From: Massalongia carnosa
Taxonomy: Eukaryota
Length of the DNA stretch: 64,000 bases
Assembly: GCA_965645245.1 (NCBI GenBank)
Contig: OZ287083.1
Span: 1,178,001 to 1,242,000, forward strand
Direction: 5' to 3'
Translations under genes and position numbers: made by a program
The notes under the pieces: model-generated
What the model saw: only the letters and a program-made list of their open reading frames with translations
Database searches by the model: none
What the model was told of the DNA's origin: nothing
Shown: positions 54,669-61,686 of the stretch, one piece after another
Numbering within the stretch: position 1 is the stretch's first letter
Layout: the number at the start of each line of letters is the position of its first letter

Positions 54669-55075
54669 GTCTCGCGGAGCCTCAATGCCCTGAACATGTT
54701 GGGGAGTTTGAGGCGCACTTGCAAAGCGTGGGAATGGATAGGCCATGAGAAGGTAATGACAGGGCGTGATTGTGTAGCTGTTTCTGATTGCGTTGTGATA
54801 CCTATCGGTTGTGTTGAAGGCAGCAAACCAGGTATGGATACTTCCATGGGGGTAATGTCCATCAGGAACACTTTCTTCGCTTAAGTTTCTTCTTTAGGGC
54901 TACTAGAATCGACCGCTTAGCAATAGAAGGTAGGAACTCGAAAGAAGTTAAGGAAATGAGATGGGTGGATAGGTCAAGCCTATCTTTTAGAATAATTATC
55001 GAGAAGCAAAGGTAAGCACCCAGGTAAGCTAGTATATTGTTATGGGAAATTGCTGTACGCTATATAGCACGTTCA

Positions 55076-55376
55076 ATCTATGACCCTTATCGGTGCCGTT
55101 ACCTTCGCTTGCGCTGGGGGGGCTTTTAATTGGATGAATTGATTTGAATGCTTGAATTTGATTGGGCATGGGAACGACACAGGTCAGCCCGGGCAGGCCT
55201 AGGCACGTGACTCGGGGTCGGTGCTGAGGTGAGAACCTCATCTTCTAGGCCCGAGGCGTCTGCTGACGCTCAACGATCCGATAGATGATGCCCGACGGCA
55301 GTGCCCGACGGCGATGATCTAGATGGAGGTGCCCGGCGGCGCTCCGGATCGATGCCCTGGTTGACCTGTACGCCCA
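55076..55376 (-). repeat. Split direct repeat B2 (301 bp, identical to B1 at 55606-55906)
   Basis: Line-by-line comparison shows no mismatches (offset 530). Confidence 0.95.
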
Positions 55377-55430
55377 TCGCTCACTTAAGGTGGCTTCTAA
55401 CTAGCTATGAATCTCGGGTGGCCGAGGGTG

Positions 55431-55606
55431 GGGAAAAGCAGCAAGCACTGACAGCGAGGTAGGGGCACCGAGACAACGTGGGGTCGACGACGAGTCAGTG
55501 AGATGGATGAGGCCGAGTGAGAAGAAGTGGATGAGGAAAGAATTTTCAGAGGGTGATTCTTAATTTACTTTGACTCAGGGGCCTCACGTGACATAGAACC
55601 ATCTCA
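55431..55606 (-). repeat. Split direct repeat A2 (176 bp, identical to A1 at 59764-59939)
   Basis: Line-by-line comparison shows no mismatches (offset 4333). Confidence 0.95.
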
Positions 55607-55906
55607 TCTATGACCCTTATCGGTGCCGTTACCTTCGCTTGCGCTGGGGGGGCTTTTAATTGGATGAATTGATTTGAATGCTTGAATTTGATTGGGCATG
55701 GGAACGACACAGGTCAGCCCGGGCAGGCCTAGGCACGTGACTCGGGGTCGGTGCTGAGGTGAGAACCTCATCTTCTAGGCCCGAGGCGTCTGCTGACGCT
55801 CAACGATCCGATAGATGATGCCCGACGGCAGTGCCCGACGGCGATGATCTAGATGGAGGTGCCCGGCGGCGCTCCGGATCGATGCCCTGGTTGACCTGTA
55901 CGCCCA
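55606..55906 (-). repeat. Split direct repeat B1 (overlaps the YR stop codon)
   Basis: Identical to 55076-55376; abuts A2 directly. Confidence 0.95.
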
Positions 55907-57012
55907 ATGGAATGCCCAATTGAGTAGGGGTAGGAGTTTGTAGGATTCGTCTCGGCGACGACAGCACGTGGGACTGCTAGAGGGATGCCTTTTTGAAAAC
56001 TGAGGTTCAAATTGAATAGTGAGGCCTGGGACGTCTGAAAGTATAGCTGAAACGCGTTTGATGACCATCTTCCGAGTCTCTGAATACTCTCATCCAGCAT
56101 CCCGTGGTCGGCGGCGTGTTGTGCTGCTCCTTTTCTGAAGCTGTGTCCCGAGTATGCCGAGTCGTTGATGCCGACGGCTATCAGTCTCTTTTTCAGGGAT
56201 GCTATGACGGAGGCTCTGGTGAATGCGGTGCCGAGACGAAAAAGCGGGGATGTAGATGGTTGAGGATCATTTCTGAAAAGACGCCGTAGTGCTGTCACGG
56301 GGCAAGTGCTCTCATTGGTCGCTGCCAGCACTATCTGAACTCCTGAGTGATTTGTGTCTGTTTTGCTTCTTTTGAGACGTAATGTCGCGTATTGATCGTT
56401 CTCGGCGAATGAGATGTCACCTCGTGTAGGTTTCAATCTCTGAAAAGATGTCTTCTTACGATCAGCGACAGTGTAGGTGATTTCCCCGAGTCTGAGGAAC
56501 CCTGCCCATGCAACTTTGAATGTCGCGTCGATGTTGAGGTCTTCGGCCGAATGAGCGGGAATACTGGTGATTTTTGTCAGTAATTCTTTTGAAATGGGTA
56601 GGCGTCTTCTTTTTGTCTGAGAAAAGATCCTTTTTCCCCCTTTCAGCATCAATTGAAGTCTCGGCCCCTCGAATGGGGTGAGGCCGTATCCTCGGTCTAC
56701 ATGGTATGATCTGAGGCCGGCGAGGTAGCTCGCTGCCGTCTCTGGTTTTATCTTTCCCTGCTTGGGTGTGCCGCCCCCGTATAGTCGACCGGCTAGCCAT
56801 TCCTCGAGGGACTCGGTTGTTGCAGGCCACGACGTGCGTCCCGTCGTCGCGCAGAATGCCTCGTATGAGTCGATCGCCGTCCCGTACCCTTTTCTCGTGT
56901 CCGCCGAGTGTCCGTGCCAGACGAGACGTTTTACCAGGGCTGACCCTGGTGTGGAGGATAGGTAGGTGGAGGGAGGTTCATCGAATTGTATGGGTTCTGC
57001 CAATGAGGGCAA
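55849..57012 (-). CDS. Tyrosine recombinase of the retrotransposon (no ATG start; probably entered by splicing)
   Basis: N-terminal binding domain (TRKGY...YLAGLRSYH), AWAGFLRLGE, KRSKTD, CPV, GHSFRKGAA, LGRWSSNAFQLY. Overlaps the RT/RH ORF end by 82 nt. Confidence 0.93.
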   Translation of the reverse strand: MPSLAEPIQFDEPPSTYLSSTPGSALVKRLVWHGHSADTRKGYGTAIDSYEAFCATTGRTSWPATTESLEEWLAGRLYGGGTPKQGKIKPETAASYLAGLRSYHVDRGYGLTPFEGPRLQLMLKGGKRIFSQTKRRRLPISKELLTKITSIPAHSAEDLNIDATFKVAWAGFLRLGEITYTVADRKKTSFQRLKPTRGDISFAENDQYATLRLKRSKTDTNHSGVQIVLAATNESTCPVTALRRLFRNDPQPSTSPLFRLGTAFTRASVIASLKKRLIAVGINDSAYSGHSFRKGAAQHAADHGMLDESIQRLGRWSSNAFQLYFQTSQASLFNLNLSFQKGIPLAVPRAVVAETNPTNSYPYSIGHSIGRTGQPGHRSGAPPGTSI

Positions 57013-58634
57013 AAGTTAGCCAATCTTTCATCATCAAAACGTGACAGGGCATCTGCTAGTCCATTGGAAGTGCCACTGATCCATTGACAACGTAGTACGA
57101 TGTCCCACTTTGCAGCTATGGACAGTATTTCTCGTAGAGGCGCGTTGGCCGGTCCCTTGAGGGTTAGATTCGTGAATCCTGTGTATGCTGTGTTGCTGTC
57201 GGTAAAGACAAGGATCTGTCGATGTCGCCATGTCGGCGCCCATTTCTGAAGGATTAGAAGGATAGCTTCGACTTCTCGGACGTTTATGCTCGGTGATCCT
57301 TCCTGATTGAGGACTAGGACTCGGGCCCTACATGCGTTTTTTTGATTCACGAGCTCGTTGTCTTGTTGAAAATAGCCTCCGAGACCCGTGAGGCATGCAT
57401 CCGTATGCACCTTGATCGTGTCTCGTGTTGACGTCTCGAAGAAGACAATACCGTTGAAGTCCACTAGAAGTTTGTTCCACCAGATGAGATCCTGTCTGAC
57501 CCATGTGGGAATTCTTCTTTTGACCCGACGATGACTGCCCGAGGGAAATGAGGCTATAAAATTCCAGAATAATCGTAAGAAGACTCGGCCCAATTTGACT
57601 GCCTGTGCGCAGAAGCTTAGGAAGCCCGCTATTGACTGCATGTCGCCGAGGCTGATTGTCGTCTCGTTTAGTGCCTTTGTAGTGATGATTCTCGCTTTTT
57701 CCAGCTTGTCCGCTGGCAGACGAATAAGACTGTTGATGGTGTCGACCTCGAGTCCGAAGACTGTCGCTGTCGTTCCCTCGGCGTCTTTTGAGTCGTTTCT
57801 CGGGATGCCAAGAATGTCGGTGAGAATGTTGTAGGCTTTTGTTTCTTGGTGCAATCGTTCTGACGATGTCTCGGATGGGAAAATTGCAACGAAGTCGTCT
57901 AGATAGTGATGTAATCTCCATTGTAGAAAGGATTCCAAAATCCAATGAAAGCCTTCCGCAAAAAGATTGAAGATGAACGGGGCCGTCGACAGTCCGAACG
58001 AAAGGCATGTCTCGGTGTAGAATTCGTCATTCCATCCGAAACCCAGAAGCCATTGATGATGAGGTGCGACGGGAACGTTTCGAAAGGCGTCTTTGACGTC
58101 TCTTTTCACTATGACAGCACCTTTGCCCGCTGACAGAATCAATTGAATAATGTCGTCGAGTCTGGCGTATTGTAATTTGGATGCCTCTTCTGGAATGTTG
58201 TCGTTGACTGATGTTTGATTGGGATGAGACAGATGATGAATGCGTCGCCATCCTCCGTCATGTTTCGGGACCAAGCCGAGGGGGGAGGCCACAAATGGCT
58301 GACTCGGGGCGGCTATTCGTCTGACTCGGCCCTTCCTGAGGTCCTCTTGGAGCTTATTCTCGATCGTTTCCGGGTCCTCATTCGCTGATGTCAGATTTTT
58401 TTCGATCCGAAGGATGTCTGTGGGGCCTTCGTATCCGATTTGTACTCCGAAACGAAGGATCATGGGCAGATGGACTCGGAGGGGGCCCGGATACTCTTGA
58501 AGTAGAGTTGCCCATGCGGACGGTACGAGGGGAGATGGGCTGTCTTTCAAACGCTGACGAGATGCGTCTACGAGTTGAAACGAAGGGATTGTATTTGGTC
58601 TGATTGGTGCAGGTAAGCAGGGATGGGACGTCAT
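56931..58634 (-). CDS. Reverse transcriptase - RNase H (pol) of the retrotransposon
   Basis: SPLGLVPK...WRRIHHLS, DVKDAFR, LSFGLSTAPFIF, HYLDDF, FGLEVDT; RNase H TDAC...REVEA...TDS...ADALSR. Confidence 0.96.
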   Translation of the reverse strand: MTSHPCLPAPIRPNTIPSFQLVDASRQRLKDSPSPLVPSAWATLLQEYPGPLRVHLPMILRFGVQIGYEGPTDILRIEKNLTSANEDPETIENKLQEDLRKGRVRRIAAPSQPFVASPLGLVPKHDGGWRRIHHLSHPNQTSVNDNIPEEASKLQYARLDDIIQLILSAGKGAVIVKRDVKDAFRNVPVAPHHQWLLGFGWNDEFYTETCLSFGLSTAPFIFNLFAEGFHWILESFLQWRLHHYLDDFVAIFPSETSSERLHQETKAYNILTDILGIPRNDSKDAEGTTATVFGLEVDTINSLIRLPADKLEKARIITTKALNETTISLGDMQSIAGFLSFCAQAVKLGRVFLRLFWNFIASFPSGSHRRVKRRIPTWVRQDLIWWNKLLVDFNGIVFFETSTRDTIKVHTDACLTGLGGYFQQDNELVNQKNACRARVLVLNQEGSPSINVREVEAILLILQKWAPTWRHRQILVFTDSNTAYTGFTNLTLKGPANAPLREILSIAAKWDIVLRCQWISGTSNGLADALSRFDDERLANFCPHWQNPYNSMNLPPPTYPPHQGQPW

Positions 58635-58679
58635 GAATTCAGCTATTGAAGCTATTCTACTGCCTCCTGCACCAACCCC

Positions 58680-59693
58680 CTATTTCTTCGTTGGGCATGT
58701 CTTCTGGCCATGCCCAGCCGCGCCGCACGATTTACATTTGTGCTGTCGGTAGCACGACGGCCAGGTGCAGGTGCCGCTGTTGTACTTGTCGCAGATTTCC
58801 CCCGCTGCCTTCTCGGCCCTATCGGCCCTGTCTCCTCTCGGGGTCGGTCGCCGGGACGGCGGGGATCGTGAGCGGCGACGGCGTAGGACTGTGAGGGGGG
58901 TGCAGAATCGAGCTTGGAATTCGTCGGGCATTTTCCATTGGGATGCGTCGGATGGCTGAGACGCGATGATGTGAGTGTGGGTTTCGATGGCGAGGGGGAG
59001 GACTGCTTCCTGCCACTCGTACACCTTGGCCAGCGTGAGGATTTTTCCGTGGAATGCCGACATGGTGGCGTGAAGCTGTTGACTCGATTTCCCGAAAAGA
59101 CTGACCATGATCGAGGTGTAGTTGATGAAGCTCTCGGTCCAGACGTCATGAACTGTCTTTCCGAAATCTTTGTAGGTCCCGGATGCCTTTCTCAACCTCA
59201 AGGCGCCGTCTTCGATGCCGATGCGGTCCTGATCCTTGTAGGACTCGTATTGCATGCCGTGCATGTGTCGGAGGCGGGAGAGGTTGATGGCTTTGAATTT
59301 ATTTGAAAAGATCTTGATGATCTCGTCCTGTGGTAGGCCCGCGAAACGGGGTGCTATACTTCTTACTTCGAGAGGGATCTCACCTAGGTCCTCGTCGTCA
59401 TCGCCGACGACACGACTCGGCTTGCCAGCAGGAATGACGGCCGCTATTCGGGCGTCAGATTCTCGGCGCATGCAGTCGATTTCTAGCTGCATTTTTTCCA
59501 CCTCCTTCTCGGCGACCAATGCCTTGGACTCGGCAATTCTGGCCTCAGCCTCGGCCGCCTTCGCTTCTGCCTCGGCTTTCTTCTTTTGTAGGGCGAAGAT
59601 TTGATTGGACTGGGCCTGCGTCAATCCGACAATCTCCTGGGAGTCGGGGACTATGTCGTCCATCGGGGTGCTTTGGGAACGGGTGTTCGTCAT
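58680..59693 (-). CDS. Gag-like ORF1 (N-terminal coiled coil, C-terminal CCCH plus CCHC zinc fingers)
   Basis: ATG at 59693 (MTNTRSQ), KAEAEAKAAEAEARIAE coiled coil, CDKYNSGTCTWPSCYRQH then CKSCGAAGHGQKTC. Confidence 0.9.
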   Translation of the reverse strand: MTNTRSQSTPMDDIVPDSQEIVGLTQAQSNQIFALQKKKAEAEAKAAEAEARIAESKALVAEKEVEKMQLEIDCMRRESDARIAAVIPAGKPSRVVGDDDEDLGEIPLEVRSIAPRFAGLPQDEIIKIFSNKFKAINLSRLRHMHGMQYESYKDQDRIGIEDGALRLRKASGTYKDFGKTVHDVWTESFINYTSIMVSLFGKSSQQLHATMSAFHGKILTLAKVYEWQEAVLPLAIETHTHIIASQPSDASQWKMPDEFQARFCTPLTVLRRRRSRSPPSRRPTPRGDRADRAEKAAGEICDKYNSGTCTWPSCYRQHKCKSCGAAGHGQKTCPTKK

Positions 59694-59763
59694 TGGGAAA
59701 AAGCACCGACAGCGAGGTAGGGGCACCGAGGACAACGTGAGGTCGACGACGAGTCAGTGAGAT

Positions 59764-59939
59764 GGGAAAAGCAGCAAGCACTGACAGCGAGGTAGGGGCA
59801 CCGAGACAACGTGGGGTCGACGACGAGTCAGTGAGATGGATGAGGCCGAGTGAGAAGAAGTGGATGAGGAAAGAATTTTCAGAGGGTGATTCTTAATTTA
59901 CTTTGACTCAGGGGCCTCACGTGACATAGAACCATCTCA
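59764..59939 (-). repeat. Split direct repeat A1 (5' terminus of the element)
   Basis: Identical to 55431-55606. Confidence 0.95.
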
Positions 59940-61686
59940 CCATTTAAGGGGACCTCTATCAATTCCGTAGAAACCCACCATAGCGTGAATTCGTATCAGC
60001 AAGGTATTGAGAAACTGCAAAGTATATGAACTCACCTTCGTCGGAACGTATATACAAACTTGCTTATGCCATTCTGAAAACAGATTATCGAGACCATATA
60101 GCCCTCTTTGCTTGCAGGGAACCCCACCCAAGAATACACATCCTCAAGAAAAGAATGTATATTAGACATCACACCAAGTTTTGTTCATATTATGTCGACG
60201 CTGCCGACTCACAGCTTAAGCAAGTATTGTCATATCTTCCTTGCCTGCTAGGATTGCTTACATCTTATTTGTGTTTTCGGGGGTTTCTCATGGGCGATCT
60301 TTTGAGTTGCGTCCCAAGGTATGACTGGCGCACATTATCATTCAAAACAAAGACAAGTTGCGGCGCTTGCTAAGACCCTTACGAAAGGGGTCAACAGGTA
60401 AGATAAGGTAGAAGTAAAACAAAAGGCGTTGGAGAACTGGATATCTTGGACTATTCGATGTGATCCATTGGAATGAAAGCACTTCAGTCTGTAGACTCAA
60501 GAGAGGATGAGAATATCGTGAACTAGTTCTTCAATGTGATCCATGGAAAACGAAAACACTTCCAGCTTCAGAACTAACAGAGAGGCATTGTATTCTTAAT
60601 GAGGCAACAAACTGCCATATGAGAAGACTAGGTATTAACCCCGACAAAATAACCAGCTGTACCAACCTCTTTCCTTGAAACGTTTTTCTTCTGCAACTGG
60701 CAATCTTGATAAACCTCACGACTGACTACTCGTTCATATTTCCTGCCCTGAAGAGTTTCTTTTCTGGTTGGCTGTGATGTCAAACCCTTCACCGTCTAAT
60801 TTTCTCACTTCTGGAGTGTTGAGTAAAAATTTGAGCTTCACCTTTCACATACGACCACAGACTGAGGACATACAGGGTATCCCGTCCGCTCTGCCAACTG
60901 AAAACTCAGATCGATCGGTTAGTAATTGGTTGGGTGACCACCAGCGAATTCCGGTTGTTGTATGTTTTTGATTTTAAAAGATGAAATTGAAGCTGTTGGT
61001 AGATTTGTTGGGGCAGGATTGAGGAAGCGGTGGAGAGAGGGAGCTCGTATCAAATCACTTGGAACCCGATCGAGGTCGACCTGCATGCGGGCGTTCGGAG
61101 GATGCATTCTCTATGCGTCAAGTCATGCAAACTCAGGCGCGCAAGCTGCTGCGCACGCTCCAAGCCCGAATACTTAAACTTTCTACTAACCTCTAATTTA
61201 CCTGTTTGGTACCGTTGAAAATGCTATGGGTTGAGTGTTTAGAATTCTGAGTACTGAATACGAGAAGGATCCGATGTCCACCGGCGATAGCTTTTCGTTC
61301 CCCGAATGGCTGTGATAATGTAGTCATAATGGAGGATTACGATTCGACAATAAACGCCATTTACGATTTTGTTCCTGCAGCTAACTAACTAGTAGGCCCG
61401 CCCTCGGAAGCCATGCGGCCGAAGCTGGTCCGAGCGACGGATCCTTCCCCTGAAAATCTGCTTTTTGTTAATTCCCGATGAGAGAGCCGTACCGTTGACA
61501 TCGCTAATACTTCCGAATGTAGATCAATAGAGATCTATAGAGTAATCTGTTAGCATTGAAGCTAGGCAACAATGTTTTCCATATATGTGCCCAAGGGGAG
61601 ACCCGTTCTCCGGTTTGAGTGTGAACCAAAGGTTAAGCCAGACAATCGTCTTCGACTCGCCAGTGGCCCGCTTACCCAGCTCGAAA

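Follow-up and report, generated by a model that had tools for sequence, protein, structure and literature searches.

How a protein-coding frame that has no start codon of its own, and that opens inside another gene, comes to be translated is the question raised by a retrotransposon of Massalongia carnosa. The window analyzed here comprises 64,000 nucleotides (nt) of assembly GCA_965645245.1 (OZ287083.1, positions 1,178,001-1,242,000, forward strand), and all coordinates below are counted within it. It holds one copy of a complete Ngaro-type tyrosine-recombinase (YR) retrotransposon at 55076-59939 on the minus strand, which in the sense direction reads repeat A1, gag, a TAG, pol (reverse transcriptase, RT, and RNase H), YR in the -1 frame, and repeats B1-A2-B2. 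The YR frame (57015-55849, minus strand, 388 codons) opens directly after a TAA at 57018-57016, overlaps pol by 85 nt, and has its first methionine at codon 123, behind a Cre-like N-terminal domain. A sequence-only reading of this locus had proposed that YR is made from a spliced messenger RNA (mRNA) in which the beginning of gag is joined to the recombinase. Strong comparative evidence and one read-level use of the acceptor support this interpretation, and a spliced Gag(N)-YR mRNA is, in our judgment, probably the best explanation of how YR is expressed. The features on which the proposal turns are the following.

59378 to 59387, minus strand: proposed 5' splice site CTAG/GTGAGA (the slash marks the exon-intron boundary), with the last exon base at 59384 and the first intron base at 59383.
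59384 to 59693, minus strand: proposed coding part of exon 1, 310 nt ending in phase 1, comprising Gag residues 1-103 and the first base of codon 104.
56997 to 59383, minus strand: proposed intron of 2387 nt, predicted from the conserved donor and acceptor, containing gag beyond the donor, its TAG and almost the whole of pol.
57015 to 57020, minus strand: branch point GCTAAC within the pol codons Ala-Asn, its CTRAY conserved and its TAA opening the YR frame.
56997 to 57014, minus strand: pyrimidine-rich tract and 3' splice site CAG, with AG at 56998-56997; a GT..AG joint of sequencing run X4 ends here.
55849 to 56996, minus strand: proposed exon 2, coding for YR, a Cre-like two-domain tyrosine recombinase; its 3' end enters repeat B1.

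The coordinates and phases given in the sequence-only reading were all correct to the base when computed again. After GCTAAC (57020-57015) the sense strand reads TTTTGCCCTCATTGGCAG, with the AG terminating at 56997 and the predicted exon taking up the YR frame in phase 1 from 56996; the branch A lies 19 nt before the G of the acceptor AG, and no other AG intervenes. The predicted 59384/56996 junction codon is G/AA, glutamate, the predicted fusion has 485 amino acids, and the length of the proposed intron leaves a remainder of 2 on division by three. From 59939 to the acceptor the sense strand contains just three GTRAG sites, and this scarcity, with the nucleotide-level conservation of both signals in diverged relatives, speaks for more than coincidence. 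Fungal introns follow the consensus GTRNGT or GTRAG at the donor and YAG at the acceptor, and by sequence the candidate has the GT donor G/GTGAGA, a CAG acceptor and a CTRAY branch point. Fungal 5' and 3' splice sites and branch points are described as having high information content in the portion of PMC4363200 considered here. A scan of host DNA for intron-like patterns matched the mononucleotide shuffle more often than the real sequence.

The acceptor was surveyed in 81 sequences, namely the window and 80 loci from a scan of metagenome contigs, whose YR is 32-54% identical and many of which have pol and gag upstream. Six of these run off the contig and three have no YR start, leaving 72 testable. 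The motif CTRAY-N4-17-YAG, counted where it lies in the YR frame's phase 1, at most 75 nt from the expected YR start, is present in 67 of the 72 (60 with an open frame and seven degenerate copies) and in 27 of 28 testable lineages defined at 60% amino-acid identity; the five sequences without it are the deletion copy L012 and L033, L051, L053 and L069. Across the same stretches the motif occurs 70 times in phase 1, compared with 9 and 3 times in the other two phases and a background, whatever the phase, of 1.44 per kb. The pol frame of the main subgroup has the sequence ADALSRFD..[IL]A[ND][LI]CPHWQ and is variable in length and sequence thereafter, and conservation of the YR frame ([EGD]PLxFxxPP...) starts where that of the pol frame stops, at the CAG. 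All 39 aligned rows (all 35 unique main-subgroup sequences) have CTRAY there despite the encoded amino acids being alanine, threonine or serine followed by asparagine or aspartate: the codon preceding N/D is always NCT (GCT, ACT or TCT) and that of N/D always RAY, and T occupies the comparable codon position elsewhere in the same elements in 173 of 1038 cases (16.7%). A YAG follows the branch A in all 35 unique sequences, 19 nt away in 29 of them and 13 nt away in 6, and the glutamine at the acceptor is encoded by CAG in 34 of 34 rows versus 44.7% elsewhere. Subgroups in which pol and YR do not overlap have a CTAAC, CTGAC or TACTAAC of their own 9-16 nt before a phase-1 YAG.

At the other end of the proposed intron, GTRAG was sought in 27 gag copies over a stretch of 120 nt, homologous to residues 85-125 of window Gag, and 23 of the copies have exactly one such site in phase 1 at the homologous position. 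The exceptions are L024 (GTACGC), L031 (CGT AAG further upstream), L050 and L053; G/GTGAAA at the homologous place in the degenerate copy at the closest locus (L071/L072) was not counted as GTRAG. The phases of GTRAG in this region split 23:1:0, the single other site being in phase 0 and in the window itself, and the rest of gag contains seven GTRAG in 15,591 nt. Gag N-termini are poorly conserved, each closing with an acidic patch ahead of a conserved core, and the dipeptide encoded at the donor varies (GE, GK, RE, RK or SK); xGTRAG is nevertheless retained, and the corresponding background, xGT-RAG among xGN-[E/K] codon pairs elsewhere, is 49 of 656 (7.5%).

Both splice sites are present in 18 of the 24 sequences that carry both regions, with implied introns of 2351-2700 nt. 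In 14 of the 18, exon 1 is complete, stop-free and 40-219 codons long from its ATG; in the other four, gag starts off the contig or is broken. The implied intron length leaves a remainder of 2 on division by three in 13 cases, 1 in three (L003, L006 and L011) and 0 in two, tracking the genomic frames, and the phases of donor and acceptor match in all 18 despite these differing frames. Exon 1 ends in G in 16 of the 18, so that the junction codon equals the genomic codon of the YR frame. The signals whose conservation the sequence-only reading had put forward as informative, GCTAAC...YAG at the YR start and a phase-1 donor in gag, are thus kept in relatives, and the alignments indicate that this conservation exceeds coding constraint and extends to a matching of phase, as a spliced Gag(N)-YR mRNA would have it.

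An AlphaFold2 model of YR based on a 40-sequence alignment has a predicted local distance difference test score (pLDDT) of 85 and is confident from about residue 10; residues 1-7, upstream of the acceptor, have a pLDDT below 50 and are the only N-terminal part modeled this low. Foldseek aligns the model with Cre over about 325 columns (E value 4e-10, template-modeling score 0.53-0.66), and R175, K215/K218, H291, R294, W317 and Y325, which we take to be the equivalents of the catalytic residues of Cre, are at least 90% conserved in the 40 aligned sequences. Pfam Phage_integrase matches weakly (17 bits, cut-off 27.1), and a sequence profile search of the PDB with YR gave no matches. Judged by this model, YR is a tyrosine recombinase and not a DDE integrase, as in Ngaro. 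For the part of Gag that would be fused to it, a single-sequence AlphaFold2 model shows one long helix over residues 26-86 (pLDDT 82-96); of the coiled-coil Gag N-terminus suggested earlier, the long helix is thereby upheld, the model covering the helix only and not coiled-coil pairing.

The two upstream frames from which the proposed transcript would be read are these.

58680 to 59693, minus strand: gag open reading frame (ORF) with N-terminal helix, core and zinc knuckle in its translation, from the ATG at 59693 to the TAG at 58682-58680.
56931 to 58679, minus strand: pol ORF (RT, RNase H) in the gag frame behind the single TAG, ending with the TAA at 56933-56931.

In the proposed model, one transcript would give three products. 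Unspliced RNA would be translated into Gag and readthrough of the gag TAG would yield Gag-Pol, and splicing out of 59383-56997 would put the first 103 Gag codons in front of the YR frame, joined to it in phase 1 at 56996, producing the 485-residue Gag(N)-YR from the gag AUG. YR would need no AUG of its own because the spliced mRNA supplies that of gag. The branch point and acceptor would be embedded in the last conserved pol codons (Ala-Asn ... Trp-Gln), with the gag donor as the presumed partner of the acceptor in vivo. Splicing of so long an intron would presumably be inefficient, leaving full-length RNA for Gag, Pol and replication, and the shared N-terminal helix may bring YR to Gag assemblies. 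The readthrough step can be set beside the gag-pol junctions of the relatives and the window, 21 of 26 of which have a single in-frame stop with pol opening directly behind it (for example at 58680-58682 in the window, 1691 in L003, 4423 in L008, 1503 in L015 and 2220 in L034). The context is often stop-CAA-TYN (stop-CAA-TTN or TCC), and the window has TAG GGG instead. Stop-CAA-TYN resembles the tobamovirus-type context that is said to promote readthrough, and the gag-pol boundary would fit the readthrough predicted earlier. Whether this scheme holds for a whole fungal Ngaro-like family, such that pol and most of gag are the intron of the YR mRNA, YR is always a Gag-helix fusion with a shared assembly tag into Gag particles, and the balance of splicing and retention sets the Gag : Pol : recombinase ratio, is to us an evenly balanced proposition.

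Evidence at the level of reads comes from contigs of four sequencing runs, with RNA or DNA origin not on record, that were compared with 55000-60000; all joints are from run X4, which has 36, and most of the 15 listed are non-canonical. Among those 15 the deepest, and the only canonical one, is 56996/57332 (depth 1962.5), which skips 335 nt that start with GT and finish with AG in the sense direction. Its acceptor is precisely the predicted one (56997/56996), paired with a donor in RNase H (57332/57331).

57326 to 57332, minus strand: candidate cryptic donor T/GTAGGG in RNase H, exon end at 57332, joined to 56996 in run X4.

We read this donor as cryptic; it is not conserved, there being no GTRNG in the region in 20 of 38 relatives. 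If X4 holds RNA-derived molecules, the joint speaks for recognition of the 3' splice site. The summed depth of X4 on the element, about 2.5e5, accounts for most of that run's 1.58 billion letters. Two further X4 joints, 55520 to 59765 and 59678 to 55436 (with three extra letters), resemble repeat recombination or circle junctions.

Several observations weigh against a spliced Gag(N)-YR mRNA. No RNA run appears among the sequencing runs listed for the element. The X4 joint is supported by a single contig, whose shorter side has 29 letters, from a run of unrecorded type, and it cannot itself encode the fusion because, with this different donor, the 335-nt intron moves pol into the YR frame at a junction codon, T/AA, that is a stop. 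The predicted 59384/56996 joint is not among the 15 listed of the 36 joints in X4. A set of 5.8 billion proteins queried with Gag 1-110 returned gag proteins only; fusions of Gag(N) to YR from this family were not among them. An intron of 2.4 kb is long by fungal standards. Conservation of the acceptor is partly at the protein level, because in the main subgroup it sits in conserved pol codons (CPHWQ). Lastly, upstream of the acceptor an in-frame ATG is present in 12 of the 67 relatives.

The protein searches returned other candidates for a fused recombinase. One search gave 339 YR relatives; longer fusions, when looked for, amounted to only three NCBI gene models from Penicillium and Fusarium (33-41% identity), the source of the named relatives, and these may bridge frames through predicted introns. 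Protein P0023, from an 11-kb Logan contig, is a contiguous 375-residue ORF in which a helical segment resembling the Gag N-terminus directly precedes a YR without its usual first ~30 residues; the segment shares the motif FTxEQxxQ with window Gag and the gag region of L071. We rejected it as a Gag(N)-YR fusion at the proposed donor, since tblastn finds YR similarity back to about residue 45-56 and leaves the junction ambiguous; it could be a processed or deleted copy. In protein P0062, from a 2.2-kb ENA contig, the C-terminus of RNase H (ADALSRF..ICAHWQPPFHP) is fused in frame to YR without the usual leader, which makes it a genuine in-frame variant or else a copy altered by an indel.

The same observations bear on other accounts of YR expression. 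That the acceptor is real and is used with other donors, giving truncating or regulatory transcripts while YR is made in some other way, has in its favor that the RNase H donor is the partner in the sole joint observed at the acceptor, that 335 nt is nearer to usual fungal intron sizes, and that a GTGAGG is available in the 5' untranslated region (UTR) at 59920. The RNase H donor gives a stop at the junction, however, and where the relatives do have GTRNG in the region it is scattered; the 5' UTR donor would bring no AUG, and it is the gag donor that is kept in position and phase. We therefore consider this account improbable, though of the alternatives it survives best.

Translation of YR alone, from a non-AUG codon (TTG at 57012-57010) or from Met123, on full-length or internally started RNA, we place just below. 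Most relatives have an NTG at the same place, which gene callers choose, and eight have ATG at that spot. This NTG is forced by the conserved pol cysteine codon (N followed by the TG of TGY), with A, G, T and C all found as N, and about 2.7 kb of RNA precedes the site. Initiation at Met123 would cut off the Cre-like N-terminal domain, and a start at the TTG would include ORF residues modeled as disordered. An upstream AUG in relatives had been named at the outset as a finding that would speak against the splicing proposal; in 55 of 67 there is no in-frame ATG between the YR opening and the acceptor.

A -1 ribosomal frameshift or other recoding within the 85-nt overlap, which would produce a Gag-Pol-YR polyprotein, appears less probable again. 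Relative to pol, the YR frame is -1 in 51 of 67 relatives, conservation switches from pol to YR at one point, and P0062 provides an in-frame RNase H-YR ORF. Against this, slippery heptamers of the form X XXY YYZ, the defining feature of such frameshift sites, are absent from the window overlap and occur in 5 of 37 relatives, at differing positions and so not conserved. Pol stops 18-279 nt ahead of the YR opening in 10 of 67 relatives, and in others YR is in the +1 frame or in frame with pol, and in both groups the splice signals are still kept; recoding would also leave CTRAY at synonymous sites and GTRAG in gag unexplained. As a separate observation, the pol frame is open over YR far past the acceptor in a closely related group (L008, L009, L010, L023, L025, L026 and L057), where the overlap is 292 nt in each by one measure and 433-667 nt by another, compared with 16-283 nt elsewhere.

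Least probable of all is that protein constraint and common ancestry gave rise to the signals incidentally, with no role in expression: CPHWQ is indeed a conserved pol motif and many loci are related or degenerate copies, but CTRAY, CAG and xGTRAG persist through synonymous and non-synonymous changes over the backgrounds given above (16.7%, 44.7% and 7.5%), the acceptor is kept in subgroups without pol overlap, and phase is biased at both sites (70:9:3 at the acceptor, 23:1:0 at the donor). The spliced Gag(N)-YR mRNA proposed from the window alone is supported by phase-matched donors and acceptors that the relatives conserve.

The remaining anatomy establishes the class of the element. Its ends and internal repeats are as follows.

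59764 to 59939, minus strand: repeat A1, the 5' end of the element and its 5' UTR, a 176-nt direct repeat 100% identical to A2.
55431 to 55606, minus strand: repeat A2, 176 nt, identical to A1.
55606 to 55905, minus strand: repeat B1, a 300-nt direct repeat 100% identical to B2.
55076 to 55375, minus strand: repeat B2, the element's 3' end, 300 nt, identical to B1.

The split direct repeats A1 ... B1 A2 B2, with two copies each of A and B, are those of Ngaro, and the copy is young because each pair is 100% identical. Pol matches RVT_1 in Pfam above the cut-off (E value 2.2e-12) and RT_RNaseH below it (22.2 bits, cut-off 24.8), with an ADALSR motif at the end of RNase H, and so has both the RT and the RNase H of Ngaro. 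No further Pfam domain, and thus no methyltransferase, was found in pol, which stops about 40 codons past RNase H, and the gag-pol-YR order without a methyltransferase sets the element apart from DIRS1 and PAT. The Pfam search of gag gave no matches. At the inner edge of A1, immediately upstream of the gag ATG, a 65-nt segment is tandemly repeated at 59701-59839 (about 75 nt start to start, 95-97% identity), and near it run X6 lacks 17 nt at 59697.

In the protein database, clusters of near-identical proteins have 54 members for YR and 39 for Gag (P0125). The nearest ESM Atlas cluster is mostly Basidiomycota, which we take as a lead only, and a scan of viral contigs found no relative. In L008 and L026, gag and pol of another copy follow on the same strand about 0.6-1 kb past YR, as head-to-tail elements. 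Seven loci from two metagenomes (L050, L055, L059, L067, L068, L077 and L080) have stops at shared positions in the N-terminal part of YR, whose counterparts elsewhere are Q or W (L029 LQPP, L056 TFWSE); such a pattern would be expected from C-to-T / G-to-A repeat mutation resembling repeat-induced point mutation (RIP-like).

A conserved donor and acceptor would provide a concrete answer to how an AUG-less, pol-overlapping YR ORF is expressed in DIRS and Ngaro elements. The model predicts a Gag-tagged recombinase and processed copies without pol, and in annotation such YR ORFs would be modeled as exon 2 of a gag-initiated transcript. If the family-wide form of the scheme is true, it would supply the first description, in any tyrosine-recombinase retrotransposon, of a functional intron that is natural and conserved. 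Ngaro elements were reportedly established in a paper by Goodwin and Poulter in 2004; we found no account of natural splicing in the literature on DIRS and Ngaro elements, a search that did not cover that paper, where a prior description is possible. Overlapping or frameshifted YR ORFs are described in the sections considered of PMC3783388, PMC7192593, PMC13465315, PMC8547959, PMC6681497 and PMC3266345, and those sections do not mention natural splicing.

As in the Ngaro elements of the DIRS order, whose fungal clades are treated by Muszewska et al. 2013 (PMC3783388), the element has gag, RT/RNase H and YR in that order, split repeats A1...B1-A2-B2, a YR ORF of the kind that is often frameshifted relative to pol, and no protease, DDE integrase or methyltransferase, as far as the available portion of that account extends. 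Unlike the Ngaro elements described there, for which that portion gives no mechanism of YR expression, its conserved donor and acceptor predict a spliced mRNA. Spliced subgenomic RNAs of Ty1/copia elements are known, according to the abstracts, in Arabidopsis (PMC5580714) and for BARE in barley (PMC3735527), and the likeness would be that a retrotransposon adjusts the proportions of its products by splicing its transcript. In those elements removal of pol raises Gag, as far as the abstracts go, whereas here splicing would give an enzyme without a start codon a newly made fusion ORF.

With the programmed -1 frameshifting of retroviral gag/pol or pro/pol, the element shares a downstream ORF that is in the -1 frame, overlapping and without an AUG, and it differs in that the slippery heptamer is absent and that relatives without the overlap keep the splice signals. 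Retroviruses also produce spliced subgenomic mRNAs for env, which in avian leukosis and sarcoma viruses borrows the gag AUG and first codons, and for Pol in foamy viruses. The proposed scheme would resemble these in that there is one promoter, full-length RNA serves as genome and as mRNA for gag and pol, and a donor in gag lends its AUG. Unlike retroviral env, the downstream gene encodes the integration enzyme and 103 Gag codons, not a few, would be fused to it; unlike retroviruses, the element resides in a fungus and lacks long terminal repeats. The spliced Gag(N)-YR mRNA would thus extend the retroviral logic of gag, gag-pol and spliced mRNA to retroelements without long terminal repeats or an integrase.

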